Part shown: positions 1 through 7,885 of the stretch, one piece after another | How the letters are laid out: each line of letters opens with the position of its first letter | Position numbering within the stretch: the first letter of the stretch is position 1 | From: a virus | Lineage: Duplodnaviria > Heunggongvirae > Uroviricota > Caudoviricetes | IMG/VR virus record: IMGVR_UViG_2693429508_000009 | DNA length: 7,885 nt | Strand: one strand, 5' to 3' | Translations under genes and position numbers: made by a program | Notes under the pieces: model-generated | The model's input: only the letters and a program-made list of their open reading frames with translations | Database searches by the model: none | Told to the model about the DNA's origin: nothing

Positions 1-1
1 C

Positions 2-250
2 TGCTTAAAAAAAGAACAAATGGTAGTGTCCGCTATTGCCAGTACACCTCATCCATCACCGAAAAAAATTGGCTTTTACACCATTGGCGATAAAAGCATT
101 TACCTGTATGACCTACGCCGCATGGATGAAATCATGGAGGCTCTTGATAATCGTTCGTCGATGGATTGGTGTGTTGCTGTTCATGATATGAATGCAGGGT
201 TTGATGAAAAGATTTTGTTCCCCTCATCAGTTGAAAGCACTGCGGGTTAA
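2..250 (+). CDS. 3' end of a phage early-region protein of unknown function (frame open to the window edge; first in-window ATG at 20)
   Basis: Reading frame is open from position 2 to TAA at 248-250. The stop is followed 10 nt later by the next gene, whose SD (AAGGAG 249-254) overlaps it, i.e. operon-style packing. No family recognised. Confidence 0.4.
   Translation, partial: CLKKEQMVVSAIASTPHPSPKKIGFYTIGDKSIYLYDLRRMDEIMEALDNRSSMDWCVAVHDMNAGFDEKILFPSSVESTAG
21..51. repeat. left copy of a 31-bp perfect inverted repeat (partner 7855-7885)
   Basis: TGGTAGTGTCCGCTATTGCCAGTACACCTCA at 21-51 is the exact reverse complement of 7855-7885. The match stops at 52/7854 on the inside and is cut by the window edge on the outside. 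Confidence 0.9.
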
Positions 251-260
251 GGAGTAACAC

Positions 261-428
261 ATGACCACTATTACCAAAGAACGTATTGAATTGTTCATTA
301 AAAACCCGCTTGAAAACGGGCTTACCCGTGGTGAACAAATGGAACTGGCACGGATTGCGCTGGCATCGCTGGAAGCAGAGCCGGTTGTGTTCTGGTTTGA
401 AAAATATCAAGAAGGGGCTACGGCATGA
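261..428 (+). CDS. small hypothetical protein (55 aa), paralogous to the N-terminal part of the following ORF
   Basis: ATG 261 preceded by AAGGAG at good spacing; 55 codons to TGA 426-428, which overlaps ATG 425 of the next gene (ATGA). Missing from the ORF track only because it is under 60 aa. Shares the MTT.T.E start and an I-A-L-x-S-L-x-A-E-P motif with ORF 425-769. Confidence 0.5.
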
Positions 429-769
429 CGACTTTTACCAGAGAGCAGTTAATAGCTCACGCAGAGGAGACTATTGAAGCACAGAGACTGTGCATACCGG
501 GCACAATCGACCATGACATCATCCGCACATATAAGATGGATATTGCTGTTCTGGAAATCGCACTGGTATCGCTGGCAGCAGAGCCAGCCGGTAAATTGCA
601 TGAATACAAACCAGTGGGATATCAGCGTCTGGTCGATGAGTTAACCATGCTGGTAAAGCAGTTAACCTGGCAACTGAGGAAAGCGAAGCCAGACTGCAAA
701 TTACCGGATAAGGCGATGAGTTATCTGGAGCGGAACGGACTGATAAGCGTGGAGGATATTTTACGATGA
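425..769 (+). CDS. hypothetical phage protein (114 aa)
   Basis: ORF-track ORF with ATG overlapping the upstream stop (ATGA at 425-428); its own stop TGA 767-769 overlaps ATG 766 of a downstream mini-ORF. Protein-like composition; family not recognised. Confidence 0.55.
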
Positions 770-849
770 CCTGGCCTGAAGCATTAACAACGGTAGGAAT
801 TGCGATGGCGGTGGCGCTGGTGGTGTATTCGATTTGCCGCTGGGGATAA
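766..849 (+). CDS. possible 27-aa hydrophobic peptide ([27 protein letters not shown]), translationally coupled to the upstream gene
   Basis: ATG 766-768 overlaps the TGA 767-769 of the upstream ORF; 27 codons to TAA 847-849. Central stretch is long enough for one transmembrane helix. Too short for independent statistical support. Confidence 0.3.
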
Positions 850-1060
850 AAACGGTTTGCGGGAAAAGGAGAGTTAAGTAGAATTGCAGCGGGTGCTTGA
901 GGCTATCTGTCTCAGGCATGAACACCAAAAGGCAGATAGAGAAAAGCCCCAGTTAACATTACGCGTCCGGCAAGACGCTTAACATTAATCTGAGGCTCAA
1001 TCTATGAACGGCAAATCTAGGTTAGCCTCTTACGTGCCGAAAGGCAAGGAGAAGCAGGCT

Positions 1061-1216
1061 ATGAAGCAGCAAAAGGCGATGTTAATCGCCCTGATCGTCA
1101 TCTGTTTAACCGTCATAGTGACGGCACTGGTAACGAGGAAAGACCTCTGCGAGGTACGAATTCGAACCGGCCAGACGGAGGTCGCTGTCTTCACAGCTTA
1201 CGAACCTGAGGAGTAA
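1061..1216 (+). CDS. hokD: Hok/Gef-family type I toxin (51 aa small membrane toxin)
   Basis: Translation MKQQKAMLIALIVICLTVIVTALVTRKDLCEVRIRTGQTEVAVFTAYEPEE has the Hok/Gef hallmarks: N-terminal TM helix, TRK(D/S)LCE motif, conserved C-terminal region. It matches my recollection of E. coli HokD/RelF. SD GGAG at 1048-1051. An in-frame upstream ATG at 1004, also with a GAGG SD, would give the 70-aa ORF in the track. Family call is firm; exact paralogue is from memory. Confidence 0.85.
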   Translation: MKQQKAMLIALIVICLTVIVTALVTRKDLCEVRIRTGQTEVAVFTAYEPEE

Positions 1217-1284
1217 GAGACCAGGCGGGGGAGAAATCCCTCGCCACCTCTGATGGGTCAGGCATCCTCAATGCACCCACACTT

Positions 1285-1317
1285 AACCCGCTTCGGCGGG
1301 TTTTTGTTTTTATTTTC
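1285..1317 (+). terminator. rho-independent terminator downstream of hok
   Basis: GC stem CCCGC (1287-1291), loop TTCG, GCGGG (1296-1300), followed by a T-rich tract 1301-1317. Confidence 0.8.
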
Positions 1318-1436
1318 AACGCGTTTGAAGTTTTAGATGGTGCCGGAATAGAATCAAAAATACTTAAGTAGCGCGCAGGGAGAAGAGGGATGGACCCCGA
1401 ACAGGGGAGTGCTATTTATCTGGAAGGATTCTGTTG

Positions 1437-1697
1437 ATGAAAATCGAAGAATTACGTGAAATTTTTAGTGAAGATGGCCTCTATACTGTGCGCGTTGAGA
1501 ATGGCGCTATTGTCAGCCACTGCCGTATTAAATGTTTACAGTCTCAACAAAGGAAGAGTGGAGCTGCGTTAATTCATTTTGTGGATGGGCTTGTGACGGA
1601 TGGTTTTATTTCGCGTGCAAATGAATTTGTCACATCGTTGCCGTCTCTGAAAGAAGCTGGGATTAAGGCTGGTTTTTCTGCTTTTGAAGATGAGTGA
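1437..1697 (+). CDS. hypothetical phage protein (86 aa from ATG 1437; track ORF starts at TTG 1434)
   Basis: SD GGAAGGA (1422-1428) 8 nt upstream of ATG 1437; clean ORF to TGA 1695-1697. Its position between hok and the DUF968 gene mirrors the rem position in the K-12 Qin prophage, but I cannot confirm sequence identity to Rem from memory. Confidence 0.55.
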   Translation: MKIEELREIFSEDGLYTVRVENGAIVSHCRIKCLQSQQRKSGAALIHFVDGLVTDGFISRANEFVTSLPSLKEAGIKAGFSAFEDE

Positions 1698-1763
1698 ATT
1701 CATCTACAATTCAGCGCAGGGCTGAACCCCTGTTGAGTAACACTGTGCCACCGGAGAAAGCCG

Positions 1764-2042
1764 ATGGCGCAAAATTCCAGACTACACAATTCTGATAATT
1801 CAGCCGTCTTTGCCAGCAGGCACGGGCGGCGCTCTCACGCATTTAAATCTGATTGGTACCAGCATCCTCCATGCACTGAAGAACAGGCCGAATGGCTCAT
1901 TCAGTGTTACCGCAGGCGCGGATGCGAGGTTAAAAAAGCCCTTAGCCTCGACTACCGTCACTGGATAATCTCCGTCAGGCTCCCTTACTCCGAACGGCCA
2001 ACGCGTCCGTCCCGCACATTCCAGCAACGGATCTGGAGGTAA
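1764..2042 (+). CDS. hypothetical protein (92 aa)
   Basis: SD GGAG (1753-1756) 7 nt upstream of ATG 1764; its stop TAA 2040-2042 abuts the start of the next gene. Arg/Ser/His-rich composition makes it less certain; the overlapping minus-strand ORF 1800-2225 looks like antisense noise. Confidence 0.45.
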   Translation: MAQNSRLHNSDNSAVFASRHGRRSHAFKSDWYQHPPCTEEQAEWLIQCYRRRGCEVKKALSLDYRHWIISVRLPYSERPTRPSRTFQQRIWR

Positions 2043-2043
2043 T

Positions 2044-3102
2044 GTGCGGGTATTACTTCGACCTGTTCTGGTACCGGAACTCGGTCTGGTTATCGTTAAG
2101 CCAGGCCGTGAATCAATGTCAGCATTCCATAACGGCAGAATACTGGTGGAGCCGGAACCAAAAAGCATGCGTAATCTGCCGTCCGGGGTCGTTCCTGCCG
2201 CTCGCCAGCCGCTGGTGGAAGACAAAACATTGCTGCCGTTTTTCAGTAACGCACGGGTGATTCGTGCTGCTGGTGGTGCTGGTGCATTGTCTGACTGGCT
2301 GTTGCGCCATATTAAATCCTGCCAGTGGCCACACGGCGATTATCATCACAGCGAAACCGTCATTCACCGTTATGGTACCGGCGCAATGGTGTTGTGCTGG
2401 CACTGCGACAACCAGCTGCGTGACCAGACATCCGAATCACTCGAGCAACTTGCTCATCAAAACCTGTCAGCATGGATGATTGACGTCATCGGTCACGCAA
2501 TAAGCGGTACGCAGGAGCGTGAATTATCTCTGGCTGAATTATCCTGGTGGGCGGTCCGCAATCAGGTGGCGGACGCGCTACCGGAAGCGGTATTACGTCG
2601 TTCGCTGGGGTTGCGTGCGGAAAAAATTCGCTCTGTGTACAGTGAAAGCGACATCATACCGGGAGAGCAGACAGCCACCAGCATACTGAAGCAGCGCACA
2701 AAAAATATTGCGTTACTGCCTCACGTCCACCAGCAACAGAACCCACCACAGGAAAAGACGGTGGTCAGCATTGCCGTTGATCCGGAGTCACCGGCTCAGT
2801 ATCTCCAGCGCCAGAAATCACAACGGGAAGAGATGCCTGTATACACGCGCTGGGTAAAAACGCAGAAATGCATGACGTGTGGCAATCAGGCAGATGATCC
2901 GCATCACATCATTGGTCATGGACTGGGAGGGATGGGAACAAAGGCTGATGATTTGTTTGTTATTCCGTTATGCCGTAAATGCCGTAACGAACTACATGCC
3001 GGAGTAAAAGATTTTGAAGAGAAACACGGCAGTCAGCTGTTGTTGCTGATTCGTTTTTTAATGCACGCGAGAAATTCGGGTGTTCTGAAGTGGAAAGCAT
3101 AA
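2044..3102 (+). CDS. DUF968-like prophage protein (YdfU-like) with C-terminal HNH-like Cys/His motif
   Basis: 352-codon ORF from GTG 2044 (strong SD GGAGG 2034-2038), with a possible alternative ATG start at 2116. C-terminal region reads C-x2-C ... D-P-H-H ... C-x2-C ... H (CMTCGNQADDPHHIIGHG ... LCRKCRNELHAG), a beta-beta-alpha-Me/HNH-like pattern. Immediately followed by rusA (TAA 3100-3102, ATG 3103). Confidence 0.65.
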   Translation: MRVLLRPVLVPELGLVIVKPGRESMSAFHNGRILVEPEPKSMRNLPSGVVPAARQPLVEDKTLLPFFSNARVIRAAGGAGALSDWLLRHIKSCQWPHGDYHHSETVIHRYGTGAMVLCWHCDNQLRDQTSESLEQLAHQNLSAWMIDVIGHAISGTQERELSLAELSWWAVRNQVADALPEAVLRRSLGLRAEKIRSVYSESDIIPGEQTATSILKQRTKNIALLPHVHQQQNPPQEKTVVSIAVDPESPAQYLQRQKSQREEMPVYTRWVKTQKCMTCGNQADDPHHIIGHGLGGMGTKADDLFVIPLCRKCRNELHAGVKDFEEKHGSQLLLLIRFLMHARNSGVLKWKA

Positions 3103-3483
3103 ATGACCGAGCGCATAGAATTTGTTTTACCTTACCCGCCGACGGTGAACACTTACTGGCGTCGTCGTGGCAGCACATATTTTGTATCAAAAGCCGGGGA
3201 GCGTTATCGCCGGGCAGTGGCGCTTATTGTTCGCCAGCAGCGGCTGAAATTAAGCCTGTCCGGAAGGTTGGCAATAAAAATTATTGCAGAACCACCGGAT
3301 AAGCGCCGCCGTGACCTGGACAATATTCTGAAAGCGCCGCTGGATGCGCTGACGCATGCGGGGTTGCTAATGGACGATGAGCAGTTTGATGAAATCAATA
3401 TCGTTCGTGCTCAGCCAGTATCTGGTGGACGTCTGGGGGTGAAGATTTATCCCATAATGCTTGAAGGGCAGGTCAAAAAATGA
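3103..3483 (+). CDS. rusA: Holliday junction resolvase RusA (copy 1, 126 aa)
   Basis: Translation shows RusA hallmarks: LPYPPTVNTYWRRR near the N-terminus, the acidic RRRDLDN motif, LMDDEQF and GGRLGV. Stop TGA 3481-3483 overlaps the ATG 3480 of a Q-like start. Confidence 0.9.
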   Translation: MTERIEFVLPYPPTVNTYWRRRGSTYFVSKAGERYRRAVALIVRQQRLKLSLSGRLAIKIIAEPPDKRRRDLDNILKAPLDALTHAGLLMDDEQFDEINIVRAQPVSGGRLGVKIYPIMLEGQVKK

Positions 3484-3623
3484 AACTGGAAGATTTACCG
3501 AAATACTACTCCCCAAAATCCCCCGGCCTGACTGATGCATCGGCCTCAACGTCGAAAGATGCGCTGAGTATCACTGATGTGATGGCCGCGCAGGGCATGA
3601 CACAGAATCGGGCTGAGATGGGG
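3480..3623 (+). pseudogene. 5' fragment (48 codons) of a Q-like antiterminator gene, truncated at the single N at 3624; probably a contig end, not a biological truncation
   Basis: MKLEDLPKYYSPKSPGLTDASASTSKDALSITDVMAAQGMTQNRAEMG matches the N-terminus of the complete Q ORF at 4433-5287 with only a few substitutions. The sequence after the N (3625 onward) is unrelated. Confidence 0.6.
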
Positions 3624-3632
3624 NATTAAGAC

Positions 3633-3652
3633 TATCACTTATTTAAGTGATA
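3633..3652. promoter_or_regulatory. 20-bp perfect dyad TATCACTTA-TT-TAAGTGATA, operator-like
   Basis: Arms 3633-3641 and 3644-3652 are exact reverse complements. The TATCAC half-site resembles lambdoid repressor operator half-sites. It sits in non-coding DNA about 170 bp upstream of ORF 3805-4062. Function is inferred only. Confidence 0.35.
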
Positions 3653-3804
3653 CTGGTTGTCTGGAGATTCAGGGGGCCAGTCTACGGACATTTTCTGCCT
3701 GTGGACCAGGAAAGTGCACGGGTGCTTTCCACTCCCATGAAGCCCGGCAATCCGCGCAGATACAGTAATAAACGAACTGACAGCAGTAAGATGGAGCGTT
3801 TCTT

Positions 3805-4062
3805 TTGAACAACCAGACAATGACTTTTACCCCTGAACAATTGCGTAAACACGCGCAGGAAATGCTGCGTCATGCTGAACAACTCGAAAAAACGGGCATA
3901 ACAAAAGACGCTATCCGTAAAGATATGGTACCCGCGCTTCGGGAACTGATGCAGGCGAAGCATCGCGCACAGAAAGCAGTAGATGAGCTGGTGGACTGTG
4001 TGGCAGAGCTGGAAACCAGAGTCGGAAAGTTTGAAAAACTGGTGCAGGAGGTGCTGCGCTGA
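3805..4062 (+). CDS. hypothetical phage protein (85 aa from TTG 3805; 80 aa if ATG 3820), likely helical
   Basis: GGAG at 3793-3796 is 8 nt upstream of TTG 3805. Stop TGA 4060-4062 overlaps ATG 4062 of rusA copy 2 (TGATG coupling). Charged, heptad-like composition. Confidence 0.5.
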   Translation: MNNQTMTFTPEQLRKHAQEMLRHAEQLEKTGITKDAIRKDMVPALRELMQAKHRAQKAVDELVDCVAELETRVGKFEKLVQEVLR

Positions 4063-4436
4063 TGCGCCATGAGTTTATTTTACCTTATCCGCCGACGGTG
4101 AATACTTACTGGCGACGTCGTGACAACACATATTTTGTATCAAAAGCCGGTGAGCGTTATCGCCGGGATGTGGCGCTTATTGTCCGTCAGCAGCGACTGA
4201 AATTAAGCCTGTCCGGAAGACTGGCGATAAAGATTATTGCAGAGCCACCGGATAAGCGCCGTCGTGACCTGGACAATATCCTGAAAGCACCACTGGATGC
4301 ACTGACACATGCGGGAGTGTTAATGGACGATGAGCAGTTTGATGAAATCAATATCGTTCGTGGTCAGCCAGTATCTGGTGGACGTCTGGGGGTGAAGATT
4401 TACCCCATAATGCATGAAGAGCAGGTCAAAAAATGA
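4062..4436 (+). CDS. rusA: Holliday junction resolvase RusA (copy 2, 124 aa)
   Basis: Same RusA motifs as copy 1. By eye roughly 90 percent identical at protein level, with differences clustered at the N-terminus plus scattered substitutions. ATGA overlap with Q at 4433-4436. Confidence 0.9.
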   Translation: MRHEFILPYPPTVNTYWRRRDNTYFVSKAGERYRRDVALIVRQQRLKLSLSGRLAIKIIAEPPDKRRRDLDNILKAPLDALTHAGVLMDDEQFDEINIVRGQPVSGGRLGVKIYPIMHEEQVKK

Positions 4437-5287
4437 AACTGGAAGATTTACCGAAATACTACTCCCCAAAATCCCCTTGCCTGACCGATGCATCGGCCTC
4501 AACGTCAAAAGATGCGCTGAGTATCACTGATGTGATGGCCGCGCAGGGCATGACACAGAATCGGGCTGAGATGGGGGTTTCTGCGTTCCTTGGGAAAATG
4601 GGCATTAGTATGAATGACAGAGAGCGGGCAACAGAATTGCTGACAGAATATGCACTCAGTCGGTGTGATCGCGTGGCGGCGTTAAGAAAACTCCCGGCAG
4701 AAATAAAACCGGCAGTGATGCGTATTATGGCTTCGTATGCGTTTGAAGATTATGCCCGTAGCGCGGCGAGCAAAAAACAGTGCCCCTGCTGTCACGGAAA
4801 AAAATTTATTGAAAGCGAGGTTTTTACAAACAAGATCCAGTATCCGGATGGTAAGCCGCCGGTATGGGCAAAGTGTACGAAAGGTGTGTATCCGTCTTAC
4901 TGGGAAGAATGGAAAAAAGTCAGGGAGGTGGTAAAAGTTGCCTGTCCGGAGTGTGGCGGAAAGGGTGAGGTTTCCACCGCCTGTAAGGATTGCCGTGGGC
5001 GTGGTGTCGCCATTCATCGTGAAGAGTCGGTAAAACGTGGTATGCCTGTTATCAGAGACTGCCAGCGTTGTGGTGGTCGTGGCTATGAAAGACTACCATC
5101 AACGGAGGCATTTAATGCTATATGCGAGGTGACAAACCAGATAACACGCGCGTCATGGGAAAAAACAGTTAAGAAATTTTATGATGCGCTGGTGACCCGG
5201 TTTGATATTGAAGAAGCATGGGCTGAGCGGCAGTTAAAAAAGGTAACTAGGTTGATTTTTCCGGAATCTGTGGTAAATTCGTCATAA
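4433..5287 (+). CDS. Q: late-gene antiterminator Q (lambdoid Q family) with a DnaJ-like cysteine-rich zinc-finger region
   Basis: Positioned directly after rusA and directly before a pR'-like promoter, a terminator and phage tRNAs. N-terminus MKLEDLPKYYSPKSP resembles E. coli prophage Q-like proteins as I recall them. Contains three perfect CxxCxGxG repeats (CPECGGKG, CKDCRGRG, CQRCGGRG) and one degenerate repeat (CPCCHGKK). Confidence 0.75.
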   Translation: MKLEDLPKYYSPKSPCLTDASASTSKDALSITDVMAAQGMTQNRAEMGVSAFLGKMGISMNDRERATELLTEYALSRCDRVAALRKLPAEIKPAVMRIMASYAFEDYARSAASKKQCPCCHGKKFIESEVFTNKIQYPDGKPPVWAKCTKGVYPSYWEEWKKVREVVKVACPECGGKGEVSTACKDCRGRGVAIHREESVKRGMPVIRDCQRCGGRGYERLPSTEAFNAICEVTNQITRASWEKTVKKFYDALVTRFDIEEAWAERQLKKVTRLIFPESVVNSS

Positions 5288-5291
5288 CGAT
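5252..5291 (+). promoter_or_regulatory. candidate late promoter pR' with sigma-dependent pause element (Q utilisation region)
   Basis: TTGATT (5252-5257), 16-nt spacer, TAAATT (5274-5279), then AACGATGGG at 5286-5294. This matches my recollection of the lambda pR' -10 hexamer (TAAATT) and the AACGAT promoter-proximal pause motif. Overlaps the Q stop codon at 5285-5287. Confidence 0.55.
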
Positions 5292-5325
5292 GGGCGTTTT
5301 ATGCCTGACGTTAGAAGAGTTTCTA

Positions 5326-5352
5326 CAACCCGCCGCCGAGCGGGTTTTTTAT
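5326..5352 (+). terminator. rho-independent terminator (tR'-like, the likely target of Q antitermination)
   Basis: Stem CCCGC (5329-5333), loop CGCCGA, GCGGG (5340-5344), extendable by A-T pairs, followed by TTTTTT at 5345-5350. Lies about 40-60 nt downstream of the candidate pR' start and upstream of the tRNAs. Confidence 0.7.
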
Positions 5353-5389
5353 TGCGGAATTAATTACGGACCGTTATTATTCTGCTCCC

Positions 5390-5465
5390 GGCCCTTTAGC
5401 TCAGTGGTGAGAGCGAGCGACTCATAATCGCCAGGTCGCTGGTTCAAATCCAGCAAGGGCCACCA
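5390..5465 (+). tRNA. ileZ: tRNA-Ile (anticodon CAU; presumably lysidine-modified, reads AUA)
   Basis: 76 nt. 7-bp acceptor stem GGCCCTT/AAGGGCC, D-arm AGCTCAGTGGTGAGAGC, anticodon loop CTCATAA, T-arm GGTTCAAATCC, discriminator A plus encoded CCA. Very close to E. coli tRNA-Ile2 (ileX) as recalled. The symbol follows the Stx-phage convention and is not verified. Confidence 0.9.
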
Positions 5466-5565
5466 TCACAAACCGCCATTAGCTTATCAGGAAGAGCAGA
5501 CGACACGATAACAGGGTTGTTGGTGCGGGGGCGGGTCCCCGATGGCGGTCCATTATCGGTATTCA

Positions 5566-5642
5566 GCGTTGTTAGCTCAGCCGGACAGAGCAATTGCCTT
5601 CTAAGCAATCGGTCACTGGTTCGAATCCAGTACAGCGCGCCA
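5566..5642 (+). tRNA. tRNA-Arg (anticodon UCU, reads rare AGA/AGG)
   Basis: 77 nt. Acceptor stem GCGTTGT/ACAGCGC with one G-U pair, anticodon loop CTTCTAA (UCU), T-arm ACTGG-TTCGAAT-CCAGT, discriminator G plus CCA. argN/argO-like, as in Stx phages. Confidence 0.9.
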
Positions 5643-5752
5643 TATTCATTCTTCCAGATTCCTTCCGGCAGAGCCTTATACTGAAATATACCTGGCTCAG
5701 GATATTGTTGAAAATATTTTATGTTTGTCAAAAATAAAAGTTCTGTTAAGTA

Positions 5753-6106
5753 TTGATTGAGTGTTTGTTATACGGTCTAATGGTTTTTTCAGCATTAAAT
5801 ATTTATCATTCATATGGTGTGGGTAGAGTGAATATTGATGAGGCGTCGGGGTGTTTCATCCTTAGGCAGCGTATTGATATAGTCAATGCAGCACGAGCAA
5901 AGGCCTTCAGCCGTTTGACAGTTTTGTTCTGTACTCCTGATCGTCTTTCGGGAAGAGACGTTATTATTCTGAATAGTGATGCTATACAGAGGGTTTGCGA
6001 TGAGTTCATGGTTGCTAATTCAGAATTATTTGCTCTTGTTCAGGAGTACAACAGAATAGCCAGGACCTGTGGTATGGATGAACTTCGGATTACTCATCTG
6101 GGGTAG
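5753..6106 (+). CDS. hypothetical ORF (117 aa from TTG; no convincing SD), possibly a gene remnant in the stx-equivalent cargo slot
   Basis: ORF-track ORF; its 5' part is AT-rich and lacks a ribosome-binding site, while the C-terminal two-thirds has protein-like composition. No family recognised and no resemblance to Stx A or B subunits. Confidence 0.3.
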   Translation: MIECLLYGLMVFSALNIYHSYGVGRVNIDEASGCFILRQRIDIVNAARAKAFSRLTVLFCTPDRLSGRDVIILNSDAIQRVCDEFMVANSELFALVQEYNRIARTCGMDELRITHLG

Positions 6107-6291
6107 ATACATATCTGGATTATCACCTGTTACGGTAAAAAGTGATTGCTTACTGTTTTTGTGAATGGCATTGCAGCAGCCGGATAATGTCAGTGCTGGC
6201 TGACGGTGTGCTGGTGGCGGGTGTGGTGGTTGTTGCTTTCCCGTTGCTGAAAAAGAAAACGCCAGACTGTTAGCCGGGTATCAGTTAGCGG
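6034..6291. repeat. 258-bp exact direct repeat, copy A (ends at the N gap)
   Basis: Identical by eye to 6612-6869; copy A runs into the N run at 6292 and copy B starts right after the 5-N run. This is the pattern of unmerged contig-end overlap in a scaffold. Confidence 0.85.
6187..6273 (+). CDS. possible 28-aa hydrophobic peptide (MSVLADGVLVAGVVVVAFPLLKKKTPDC); a second identical copy at 6765-6851 lies within repeat copy B
   Basis: ATG 6187 to TAG 6271-6273. Hydrophobic core followed by a KKK cluster (single-TM-like). Weak or absent SD; too short for statistical support. Confidence 0.2.
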   Translation: MSVLADGVLVAGVVVVAFPLLKKKTPDC

Positions 6292-6503
6292 NNNNNNNNN
6301 NNNNNNNNNNNNNNNNNNNNNNNNNNNNNNNNNNNNNNNNNNNNNNNNNNNNNNNNNNNNNNNNNNNNNNNNNNNNNNNNNNNNNNNNNNNNNNNNNNNN
6401 NNNNNNNNNNNNNNNNNNNNNNNNNNNNNNNNNNNNNNNNNNNNNNNNNNNNNNNNNNNNNNNNNNNNNNNNNNNNNNNNNNNNNNNNNNNNNNNNNNNN
6501 NNN
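6292..6503. other. assembly gap (run of N); single N at 3624 and 5 N at 6607-6611 are further joins
   Basis: Unresolved bases in the sequence itself. Confidence 0.95.
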
Positions 6504-6577
6504 CCCTTTAGCTCAGTGGTGAGAGCGAGCGACTCATAATCGCCAGGTCGCTGGTTCAAATCCAGCAAGGGCCACCA
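6502..6577 (+). tRNA. second tRNA-Ile(CAU) copy on a small placed fragment (first 2 nt masked by N)
   Basis: 6504-6577 is identical to the tRNA at 5392-5465. The 3' flank (6578-6606) differs from the first copy's flank at three positions, so this is a paralogous copy, probably from another prophage, inserted between the gaps. Confidence 0.7.
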
Positions 6578-6611
6578 TCACATACCGCCATTAGCTCATC
6601 AGGAAANNNNN

Positions 6612-6869
6612 TCTTGTTCAGGAGTACAACAGAATAGCCAGGACCTGTGGTATGGATGAACTTCGGATTACTCATCTGGGGTAGATACATATCTGGATTA
6701 TCACCTGTTACGGTAAAAAGTGATTGCTTACTGTTTTTGTGAATGGCATTGCAGCAGCCGGATAATGTCAGTGCTGGCTGACGGTGTGCTGGTGGCGGGT
6801 GTGGTGGTTGTTGCTTTCCCGTTGCTGAAAAAGAAAACGCCAGACTGTTAGCCGGGTATCAGTTAGCGG
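6612..6869. repeat. 258-bp exact direct repeat, copy B
   Basis: Identical to 6034-6291; unique sequence resumes at 6870. Confidence 0.85.
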
Positions 6870-7076
6870 GAGAAATTTTTAAATACTTCACAATTCAGGC
6901 GGTTGACTGTTGTCTGGTTTGCGGGGAGTTTGTTAAAAGAAACTGGCATGGTGAATCCCCCTGTGCGGAGGGGCAATCAGCGAGTAGGTATATGGGATAA
7001 TCGCGGATTCAGGTGCTGGTACTGAATTCACCGGGAGGCACCCGGCACCATGCAATGGCACATAGCGCCACTCTCC

Positions 7077-7111
7077 AGCCCCTCTCCGGAGGGGCTGTTT
7101 ATATTGATTTT
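7077..7111 (+). terminator. stem-loop with U-rich tail (probable + strand terminator closing the tRNA/cargo transcript)
   Basis: AGCCCCT (7077-7083), loop CTCCGG, AGGGGCT (7090-7096), followed by GTTTATATTGATTTT. Confidence 0.5.
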
Positions 7112-7131
7112 GTCAGATGTGAGTAAACTCC

Positions 7132-7467
7132 TTATGGACTTTGTTGTTTTAGTCCATAAGGACATATTTGCAGAGTGCAACGGTTATTAAAGCATTCATT
7201 CAATACGTTATCTGTATTTGTAGGGCATTCCTGGCTGTTTTTGATTAAATTCCAGAATGTTTTATTGAATGGTACTACGTTGTAAATGGTTACAGGTAGC
7301 ACTTTGTTATTGAGCATGATGCCTGTGTGAGTCAGTGTAAATATACTTTCAGGAGGTAAGAAAGCATCCGATTGATACCAGATTATTAATTTTATTTTAC
7401 TCCATATGACTGAAAAAGATATTCCGCATGATGGCTGGATAACTGTATCAATCACAATCCACTTCAT
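7132..7467 (-). CDS. hypothetical 111-aa protein encoded in AT-rich DNA (moron-like); five Cys, four of them in the C-terminal third
   Basis: Minus-strand ORF with SD AAGGA 6 nt upstream of its ATG (plus 7465-7467). AT-rich DNA is stop-codon-rich, so a 111-codon ORF here is unlikely by chance. A 270-bp AT-rich upstream region (7468-7727) and hairpins at its 3' end (7130-7161) fit an autonomous transcription unit. Family not recognised. Confidence 0.4.
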
Positions 7468-7727
7468 TTAGTTTCCTTGTTTATGCCTTGCTGGTGATGT
7501 TCTGAAAAGTATAAATGATATTTTTGAATGTAAACCATAGAGCAGAATTATTTTTCTGATGTTGTTTATTGTTTATTTAAATGCAGGGTGGTTTATATCT
7601 CGTCTTGTAGTTTATCCATGCATATCTGCTTGATAATCAGGTTTTTATTTAAGGTATGGTTTTGTGTTTTTTCTGTATTACATGTCAGGTATTTTAAAGA
7701 ATTATTTTTCAGATGGTGGAAAGAACC

Positions 7728-7885
7728 ATGGCATTTAAACACTATGATGTTGTCAGGGCGGCGCCGCCGTCAGATCTTGCGGAAAAGCTGACACATAAAC
7801 TGAAAGAGGGCTGGCAGCCGTTTGGTAGTCCGGTGGCCATAACCCCTTATACCCTGAGGTGTACTGGCAATAGCGGACACTACCA
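7728..7885 (+). CDS. 5' end of a phage protein of unknown function (MAFKHYDVVRAAPPSDLAEKLTHKLKEGWQPFGSPVAITPYTL...), runs off the window
   Basis: ATG 7728 with GGTGGA 8 nt upstream; frame open to the window end (52 codons); normal-GC composition resumes here. Resembles small conserved proteins found near lysis cassettes in E. coli prophages, from memory only. Confidence 0.55.
   Translation, partial: MAFKHYDVVRAAPPSDLAEKLTHKLKEGWQPFGSPVAITPYTLRCTGNSGHY
7855..7885. repeat. right copy of the 31-bp inverted repeat (partner 21-51)
   Basis: See partner entry; this copy lies inside the coding sequence of the gene starting at 7728. Confidence 0.9.

Follow-up and report, generated by a model that had tools for sequence, protein, structure and literature searches.

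The tandem rusA/Q-start arrangement of draft scaffold CXDS01000169.1 is very probably an assembly product of two prophage remnants

The window analysed here is the entire 7,885-nt record CXDS01000169.1 of assembly GCA_001259615.1, a draft scaffold with IS600 termini on both edges. It carries the Holliday junction resolvase gene rusA and the start of the antiterminator gene Q twice, in tandem. Judged from the finished genomes of other strains, this tandem very probably arose when short reads were assembled and scaffolded, and is not a genomic arrangement. Its sequence comes from two prophage remnants, locus A and locus B. The alleles switch from B to A within the second copy of Q, the single N between the copies sits at a site where the two loci differ, and colinearity with finished locus A returns when the intervening piece is removed.

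Results

The duplication as it stands in the record

The repeat pair 3111-3623 and 4064-4576 was identical at 475 of 513 nt by direct count (92.6%). A repeat search aligned 3111-3410 with 4064-4363 at 90%, and this alignment ran on up to the N. The final mismatch between the copies is at 3554, and the 69 nt of 3555-3623 are 100% the same in both. A 6-nt indel lies at the start of rusA, and beyond it the two copies are offset by 953 nt. The two RusA proteins share 115 of 126 aa (91%), and both matched the Pfam family RusA (PF05866) over profile positions 1-123/124, at 61.6 and 61.3 bits against a curated cut-off of 22.8 bits. The ORF at 4433-5287, a hybrid of the two loci, matched the antiterminator Q family PF03589 at 179 bits; the Q fragment at 3480-3623 (48-49 aa) scored 24.1 bits on the same family, under its cut-off of 26.7. 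Runs of N are found at 3624 (1 N), 6292-6503 (212 N) and 6607-6611 (5 N). A previous sequence-only reading had described diverged tandem copies with an N between them, RusA proteins about 90% identical, and a last 60-70 nt before the N identical to the second copy, all of which the counts bear out. It had placed the repeat at 3103-3623 and 4062-4582 with 143 nt of Q; the duplication stands, but the second copy ends at 4576 and the duplicated part of Q is 144 nt. The features of the window are as follows.

1-51, minus strand: terminal 51 nt of IS600 at the left scaffold edge; 100% match to 3828-3878 of locus L002, where it abuts an annotated IS600 transposase
52-3623, plus strand: locus A (prophage remnant 1), with nin-region small ORFs, sok/hok, Rem, DUF968, rusA copy 1 and the start of Q
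2044-3102, plus strand: DUF968 gene (Pfam DUF968 match)
3103-3483, plus strand: rusA copy 1 (Pfam RusA match)
3480-3623, plus strand: first 144 nt of Q, locus A
3624, no strand: single N, the probable false join; first A/B-differing site after the 69-nt identical stretch (G in A, T in B)
3625-3684, minus strand: left terminal 60 nt of IS2, its body pointing left towards the N; holds the dyad at 3633-3652
3686-3808, plus strand: 3' end (last 40 codons and stop) of a gene for a DnaB-type replicative helicase, cut short by IS2; 100% nucleotide match to 3' ends annotated 'replicative DNA helicase'
3805-4062, plus strand: orf85 (85 aa), a conserved hypothetical gene of locus B between the helicase gene and rusA
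4062-4436, plus strand: rusA copy 2, locus B allele; diagnostic sites at 4063-4420 all B-type
4433-4576, plus strand: start of Q (144 nt), locus B alleles at 4/4 diagnostic sites; last 69 nt the same in both loci
4577-5352, plus strand: rest of Q and terminator with locus A alleles (33/33 SNPs A-type); the probable true continuation of base 3623
5353-6291, plus strand: locus B downstream region, B-type from 5353, with tRNA (CAU), tRNA-Arg (UCU) and small ORFs
6292-6869, no strand: second artefact block (212 N, a 103-nt locus A piece at 6504-6606, 5 N, a repeat at 6612-6869)
6870-7854, plus strand: locus B with the STnc100 sRNA, iraM and a truncated DUF1737 gene
7132-7467, minus strand: iraM
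7855-7885, plus strand: terminal 31 nt of IS600 at the right scaffold edge, inverted relative to 21-51

Sequence on the right of the N

The window holds only the end of IS2, without transposase genes, and this sequence stops at the N. A 59-nt query from the IS2 end had a 100% match in 6,907 E. coli records, in one example a short way upstream of a gene annotated as IS2 transposase. In a finished locus B (L005, 5564-5623), 3625-3684 is collinear with an IS2 that goes on 96 nt further left, and 3625 is therefore not a structural boundary. For the same reason we rejected the idea that the locus B contig begins at the IS21/IS2 boundary. The translation of the helicase remnant was the same as in L002 and L005. 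An annotated CDS of equal length occupies the position of orf85 in L001, L002 and L005-L014; a profile search of orf85 gave no Pfam family above the cut-off. The exact RusA copy 2 protein was found at locus B in finished genomes. The whole of 3625-6291 matched L009 and L005 without gaps, and 6612-7885 matched L009 at 99.84%.

The sequence-only reading had taken 3625-3804 for unrelated non-coding DNA with an operator-like dyad. The dyad is present (TATCACTTA-TT-TAAGTGATA, 3633-3652), but the helicase remnant makes much of this segment coding, and a phage operator was rejected as the dyad lies inside the IS2 left end. No repressor gene was found near the dyad among the ORFs of the window.

Two separate loci in finished genomes

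In finished genomes, locus A has the order DUF968-rusA-Q (273 aa)-methylase and locus B the order IS2/IS21-'dnaB-orf85-rusA-Q (284 aa)-tRNA-iraM. Two finished genomes carry both, ~0.66 Mb apart in each: CP104423.1 (locus A at 1.858-1.867 Mb, locus B at 2.527-2.540 Mb) and CBDDMI010000001.1 (1.821-1.830 and 2.485-2.497 Mb). Locus B of both is also present in S. sonnei 53G (HE616528.1; PMC5447701). The rusA-Q regions of the two loci are 93-96% identical, with stretches of perfect identity of 40-340 nt. An intact 273-aa Q follows rusA copy 1 in all ten finished A loci shown, and a 284-aa Q follows rusA copy 2 in eight of ten finished B loci, these being the ones in which the gene is called.

Homology of complete genomes to the window begins at base 52, and sok was matched within its locus A part. 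Locus A of CP064376.1 and CP104423.1 is the same as window 1-3623 but for one mismatch (gap-free in CP064376.1, L043 1958-5580) and agrees with 4577-5352 at every SNP. The tRNA region of locus A also contains the 103-nt piece at 6504-6606 at 100% (L035 7932-8034). In contrast to the window, finished locus A has a single rusA, an unbroken 273-aa Q followed by the methylase gene, and an 8-nt AGGTAACA repeat near the end of Q. Locus B (1.316-1.328 Mb in 53G HE616528.1, and others) matches window 3625-4576, 5353-6291 and 6612-7885, and shares the IS2 end, the helicase remnant, orf85, rusA, the tRNAs, iraM, the truncated DUF1737 gene and the flanking IS600. It differs from the window by 33 other bases in the middle of Q and in its left flank, where IS2 extends leftwards and is split by an IS21-type element, locus A lying far away.

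Allele switch and restored colinearity

We typed the window against loci A and B of one and the same finished genome. At 4063-4507 it was B-type at 38 of 38 SNPs and at one 6-nt indel; at 4577-5289 all 33 SNPs were A-type. The change from B to A falls within the 69 identical nt; the N of the first copy stands at the homologous first A/B site after this stretch. The left side of the junction thus ends at the last base common to A and B, and the right side starts inside the multi-copy IS2. Removal of 3624-4576 brings back colinearity with finished locus A: the spliced sequence 1-3623 plus 4577-5352 aligned to locus A of CP064376.1 in one 4,399-nt alignment with one mismatch and one 8-nt indel. 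Since the second copy carries A alleles from 4577, the best description of the artefact is an insertion of a 953-nt locus B piece in locus A.

The sole B-type feature in 4577-5352 is that the 8-nt repeat is missing at 5248. Lying inside an A-type tract, this absence counts against an artefact; it needs two extra path switches in identical stretches of 40-50 nt, or a locus A strain without the repeat.

A second artefact in the same scaffold

The segment 6612-6869 is an exact repeat of 6034-6291 (258 nt, 100%). In finished locus B, base 6291 is directly joined to the sequence at 6870, and removal of 6292-6869 restores colinearity with finished locus B. This block is a second artefact of the same kind, in which a locus A piece and an exact repeat are inserted in locus B.

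Searches for the arrangement elsewhere

A search of 5,426 complete E. coli genomes gave no tandem rusA arrangement, and the tandem mosaic was not found in the finished S. sonnei-type genomes examined that carry loci A and B. Four places in the 5,426 genomes covered at least 80% of the query 2900-4700, each with one rusA and one Q only. Two have the order dnaB-orf85-DUF968-rusA-Q, and two have dnaB-orf85-rusA-Q, with both window copies mapping onto one rusA-Q. Genes and orientation are as in the window in E. coli EC12 (dnaB-orf85-DUF968-rusA-Q) and FDAARGOS_944 (dnaB-orf85-rusA-Q); these natural orders differ from it in having one rusA and one Q each, never both orders in tandem. DUF968 is thus an optional module between orf85 and rusA in natural lambdoid orders. 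The IS2/helicase junction was absent from the same 5,426 genomes and had no exact match among GTDB species-representative genomes.

Alternative explanations

We considered whether the A/B join may be false while 3625-6291 reproduces locus B of this strain correctly, gene conversion from A having replaced ~4577-5289 and made the hybrid Q genuine. This is unlikely. It accounts for the B-type state of the 8-nt indel and of everything from 5353 onward, and for draft contigs that run contiguously from orf85 to iraM (L026). It also agrees with the finding of the exact hybrid Q protein in 18 draft contigs of different assemblies, and the hybrid in the 17 other than ours could be a real allele. However, an exact protein look-up placed the window's 284-aa hybrid Q in these 18 contigs only, all <10 kb, and in no finished genome; RusA copy 2 and DUF968 gave ~90 index blocks each, with the longest contig >1 Mb. 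Among the draft contigs that encode the hybrid, A and B flanks occur in all combinations, and in the drafts L028, L029 and L034 rusA copy 1 is followed by a B-type Q start, a pattern more easily explained by path switching than by a single allele. Moreover, the first copy stops one base before the first A/B site, which implies that the reads still hold two alternatives there; conversion of B to the A sequence would have left only one.

A real fusion of both remnants in the isolate through IS2, with Q cut at nt 144 by an IS2 that borders the locus B helicase remnant on its other side and the N hiding ~1.27 kb of IS2 body, is less probable still. The IS2 end immediately right of the N has its body oriented to fill such a gap, and the reading gains from the fact that IS-mediated rearrangements are common in Shigella. 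Against it, no IS2 right-end sequence precedes the N, and there is no target-site duplication (TGGGG before the N, CGGAC beside the IS2 end). The remaining gaps in the scaffold have been given lengths (212 N and 5 N), but here a single N stands. Nor would truncation of Q make A alleles resume at 4577, exactly the position homologous to 3624, and in finished genomes an IS21-type insertion and other IS lie left of IS2, not locus A. All of these points apply equally to the literal reading of the record: a single ambiguous base at the N, and a shortened Q set apart from another orf85-rusA-Q module by 60 nt of residual IS2, in a tandem that recombination between lambdoid prophages would have made. 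Mosaic genomes are a feature of lambdoid phages, and the orders with and without DUF968 both occur naturally. Beyond this, only the record as written speaks for such a tandem, which the sequence-only reading had offered as its alternative; neither the 5,426 complete E. coli genomes nor the finished S. sonnei-type genomes with both loci that we examined lend it support. The same scaffold contains a second artefact of the same kind, the junction itself is an N, and the arrangement does not recur in the finished genomes examined. We regard a real tandem as extremely improbable. The first proposal of that reading, that a contig break at the edge of a repeat led to the scaffolding of modules from two prophages into one, is supported by the distance between the loci, the position of the N and the restored colinearity.

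Discussion

There is no new biology in the tandem rusA/Q arrangement. The value of the analysis is as a data-quality warning on a public draft record, whose tandem rusA, 48-49-aa Q fragment and hybrid 284-aa Q are, on the assembly explanation, three false features. At least 18 draft contigs have already brought the hybrid Q into protein collections. Draft-based analyses of prophage gene content, paralogues and recombination in Shigella would count rusA too often and could report mosaicism where there is none.

The assembly explanation may be pictured as follows, the exact order of assembler and scaffolder steps being our reconstruction. The isolate, which probably belongs to the S. sonnei lineage, would carry two decayed lambdoid prophages: locus A, laid out as IS600-nin genes-hok/sok-DUF968-rusA-Q-methylase-tRNAs-IS600, and locus B, laid out as IS2/IS21-'dnaB-orf85-rusA-Q-tRNAs-iraM-DUF1737'-IS600. 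Extension of locus A would have halted at 3623, one base ahead of the point where reads split between G (A) and T (B). The locus B path, from the IS2 end to nt 144 of Q, would have been joined through the shared 69 nt to the locus A rest of Q, giving a chimeric contig. Pairs of reads that connect rusA copy 1 with the continuation of Q may then have led the scaffolder to set the two pieces one after the other, with one N between them. As a result, 953 nt (the N and 952 nt of locus B) would stand inserted in an otherwise intact locus A.

Our guess is that the record was made with a Velvet/SSPACE/GapFiller pipeline, as its accession belongs to the CX.. series used for the S. sonnei strains of Holt et al. 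2012. The paper on this Sanger pipeline reports 299 S. sonnei assemblies with a mean of 405 contigs and states that greedy tools can produce false joins (PMC5320598). According to the GapFiller paper, extension halts in repeats with equally supported alternatives (PMC3446322). We found no statement there on one N being left in gaps that cannot be closed, and therefore the meaning given here to the single N is tentative. The window shares with false joins from SSPACE/GapFiller the gap characters at joins and the placement of joins where repeat copies diverge (PMC5320598, PMC3446322). Pieces of paralogous loci set in series, and an exact duplication flanking a gap, are likewise common to the window and to chimeras of the SSPACE/GapFiller type.

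The repeat in the window

A repeat search of the window detected a diverged direct repeat (3111-3410 against 4064-4363, 90%), and pairwise alignment carried the match as far as the N. By direct count, 475 of 513 bases were common to 3111-3623 and 4064-4576. The last mismatch was at 3554, which leaves the 69 nt directly ahead of the N identical in both copies, in agreement with the 60-70 nt estimated in a sequence-only reading. The RusA proteins, described there as about 90 percent alike, shared 115 of 126 residues, and both rusA ORFs matched Pfam RusA across the entire profile. That rusA and the start of Q occur twice, split by a single N at 3624, was also borne out. The boundaries were slightly misplaced: the repeat offset of 953 nt sets the end of copy 2 at 4576, not 4582, and the Q repeat is 144 nt. 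Further N runs lie at 6292-6503 (212 N) and 6607-6611 (5 N).

Pfam matches flanking the rusA copies
2044-3102: DUF968
4433-5287: antiterminator Q (long ORF)

Two separate loci in finished genomes

Exact protein look-ups with RusA copy 1, RusA copy 2 and DUF968 resolved two separate prophage remnants in finished genomes, locus A and locus B. Two genomes, CP104423.1 and CBDDMI010000001.1, were present in the look-up lists of both loci, which lie ~0.66 Mb apart in each.

Gene order and positions of the two loci
Locus A: IS600, 76-aa, 55-aa and 114-aa ORFs, hok, DUF968 (352 aa), RusA (126 aa), intact 273-aa Q, methylase, tRNAs, IS600
Locus B: IS2 split by an IS21-type element, helicase remnant, orf85 (85-aa ORF), RusA (124 aa), 284-aa Q, tRNAs, DUF3927, IraM, truncated DUF1737 gene, IS600
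CP104423.1: locus A 1,858,369-1,867,427; locus B 2,527,495-2,539,869
CBDDMI010000001.1: locus A 1,820,906-1,829,964; locus B 2,484,630-2,497,004

The finished locus A of CP064376.1 aligned to window 1-3623 without gaps and with a single mismatch. This copy (L043) includes a 250-nt stretch (1525-1774), spanning a portion of a Rem-family ORF and the beginning of a 92-aa ORF, that most finished A loci lack (L018, L035, L036). No obvious repeat flanks the stretch, which looks like a genuine strain polymorphism.

Allele typing of the second copy

The window was aligned to loci A and B of one and the same finished genome.

Allele type along the window
4063-4507: B-type, 38/38 SNPs and one 6-nt indel
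4508-4576: A and B identical, 69 nt
4577-5289: A-type, 33/33 SNPs
5248: B-type, without the 8-nt AGGTAACA repeat carried by locus A
5353 onward: B-type at all diagnostic sites

The switch from B to A falls within the 69-nt A/B-identical stretch, the same stretch that closes copy 1. Base 4577, the homologue of the N at 3624, is the first site past this stretch where the loci differ (A = G, B = T), as expected of the contig break at a repeat boundary that had been proposed. When 3624-4576 was deleted, 1-3623 and 4577-5352 formed a single 4,399-nt alignment block to finished locus A, which differed only by one mismatch and the 8-nt indel. The allele switch and the restored alignment indicate that the "second copy" is 952 nt of locus B inside an otherwise continuous locus A, and that copy 1 in fact resumes after it. 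The earlier suspicion that modules of two prophages were scaffolded together is thus upheld by the separate loci, the allele switch and the colinearity regained by deletion. On these alignments, we conclude that the tandem rusA/Q-start feature is an assembly artefact without biological novelty.

DNA to the right of the N

The 59-nt query 3625-3683 matched 6,907 E. coli records at 100%; in one example record, an annotated IS2 transposase lay shortly downstream of it. It is collinear with the IS2 left end in a finished genome; in the window, the IS2 end reaches 3684. The bases from 3684 on match annotated replicative DNA helicase 3' ends and the adjoining 85-aa gene at 100%, and the translation of 3686-3808 gives the same 40 C-terminal helicase residues. 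Rightward from the IS2 end, the order is therefore helicase pseudogene, then orf85-rusA-Q. The reading of 3625-3804 as unrelated non-coding DNA bearing an operator-like dyad was rejected: the dyad exists (TATCACTTA-TT-TAAGTGATA, 3633-3652) but falls within the IS2 end, and 3686-3808 is helicase-coding. These matches place the first base after the N 60 nt within a multi-copy insertion sequence, the body of which would point into the gap.

In finished locus B (L005 3404-5467, outside the window), the IS2 by the helicase remnant is interrupted at roughly nt 156 of IS2 by an IS21-type element (istA/istB), and more IS600 and IS1 copies are close by; this prophage thus shows heavy nested IS decay.

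Real tandem or false join

If the arrangement were a real tandem mosaic, as alternatively proposed, it might occur in finished genomes. Among 5,426 complete E. coli genomes searched with window 2900-4700, none had the arrangement. Only four places covered at least 80% of the query: two have the natural order dnaB-orf85-DUF968-rusA-Q and the other two dnaB-orf85-rusA-Q, in which a single rusA-Q takes both window copies. The IS2/helicase junction was absent from the same 5,426 genomes and had no match among species-representative genomes. A real IS2-mediated fusion of the two prophage remnants is, in our judgement, highly improbable.

The false join probably arose as follows. Extension of locus A would have halted where two equally supported alternatives arose; the locus B path would have been connected, through the 69 nt common to both loci, to Q as it continues in locus A; and read pairs reaching from rusA copy 1 into that part of Q would have linked the two pieces, with a minimal gap written. 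GapFiller extension fails in repeats when alternatives are equally supported (PMC3446322); we found no statement on single-N gaps in that paper. The Sanger pipeline paper (PMC5320598) describes SSPACE and GapFiller as greedy, with false joins possible, and reports a mean of 405 contigs for 299 S. sonnei assemblies; the software used for the window record itself may differ.

The hybrid Q protein

The 284-aa Q ORF (4433-5287) carries B alleles to 4507, A alleles over 4577-5289 and the B-type at 5248, where the 8-nt repeat is missing. Its exact protein was found in only 18 contigs, every one <10 kb, compared with 95 index blocks for RusA copy 2 and 88 for DUF968, the longest contig there being >1 Mb. 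In draft contigs with the hybrid Q, it is preceded by either rusA copy 1 or rusA copy 2 and followed by either the methylase or the tRNA region of locus B, and allele switches are confined to A/B-identical stretches of about 40 nt or longer. All flank combinations, with switches only in identical stretches, form the pattern expected from short-read assembly path switching. There is a small chance that the hybrid is a real gene-conversion allele; however, copy 1 ends exactly one base short of an A/B site, which argues that both alternatives were still in the isolate's reads there. The hybrid Q is probably a recurrent assembly chimera, now present in protein collections.

Another artefact at 6292-6869

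The sequence at 6034-6291 is exactly repeated at 6612-6869 (258 nt), across N runs.

Composition of 6292-6869
6292-6503: 212 N
6504-6606: 103 nt
6607-6611: 5 N
6612-6869: 258-nt repeat

The 103-nt piece is 100% identical to the locus A tRNA region, not to locus B, and in finished locus B base 6291 runs directly into the sequence at 6870. This comparison indicates that 6292-6869 is a second scaffolding artefact. With a locus A piece within locus B sequence, the scaffold interleaves A, B, A, B, A, B.

Two CAU-anticodon tRNA copies (5390-5465 and 6502-6577), from different loci, differ by 2 bases. ARAGORN called this tRNA 'Met'. RefSeq labels the tRNA in the corresponding place after Q in E. coli prophages as tRNA-Ile, presumably lysidine-modified and ileX-like.

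Origin of the scaffold and minor features

An exact look-up with the window's Q protein led to the draft record CXDS01000169.1 (assembly GCA_001259615.1, 7,885 nt), to the whole of which the window is identical. Its edges, 1-51 and 7855-7885, are the same IS600 terminus in opposite orientations, with a 31-nt perfect inverted repeat (21-51 against 7855-7885); the scaffold runs from one IS600 copy to another. By exact protein look-up, finished genomes with an identical RusA copy 2 include HE616528.1 and CP019689, listed as S. sonnei 53G and 75/02 (PMC5447701). CX.. accessions are listed for S. sonnei strains of Holt et al. 2012 (PMC5447701). From these two points, we infer that the window is very probably a draft S. 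sonnei scaffold.

A hok/sok type I toxin-antitoxin lies at 891-1216, and an sRNA lies just upstream of iraM.

Minor features of the window
891-1066: sok (Rfam, 112 bits), overlapping the start of the Hok/Gef-family ORF
1004/1061-1216: Hok/Gef-family ORF
6917-7106: STnc100 sRNA, full-length family match (132 bits)
7132-7467, minus strand: iraM
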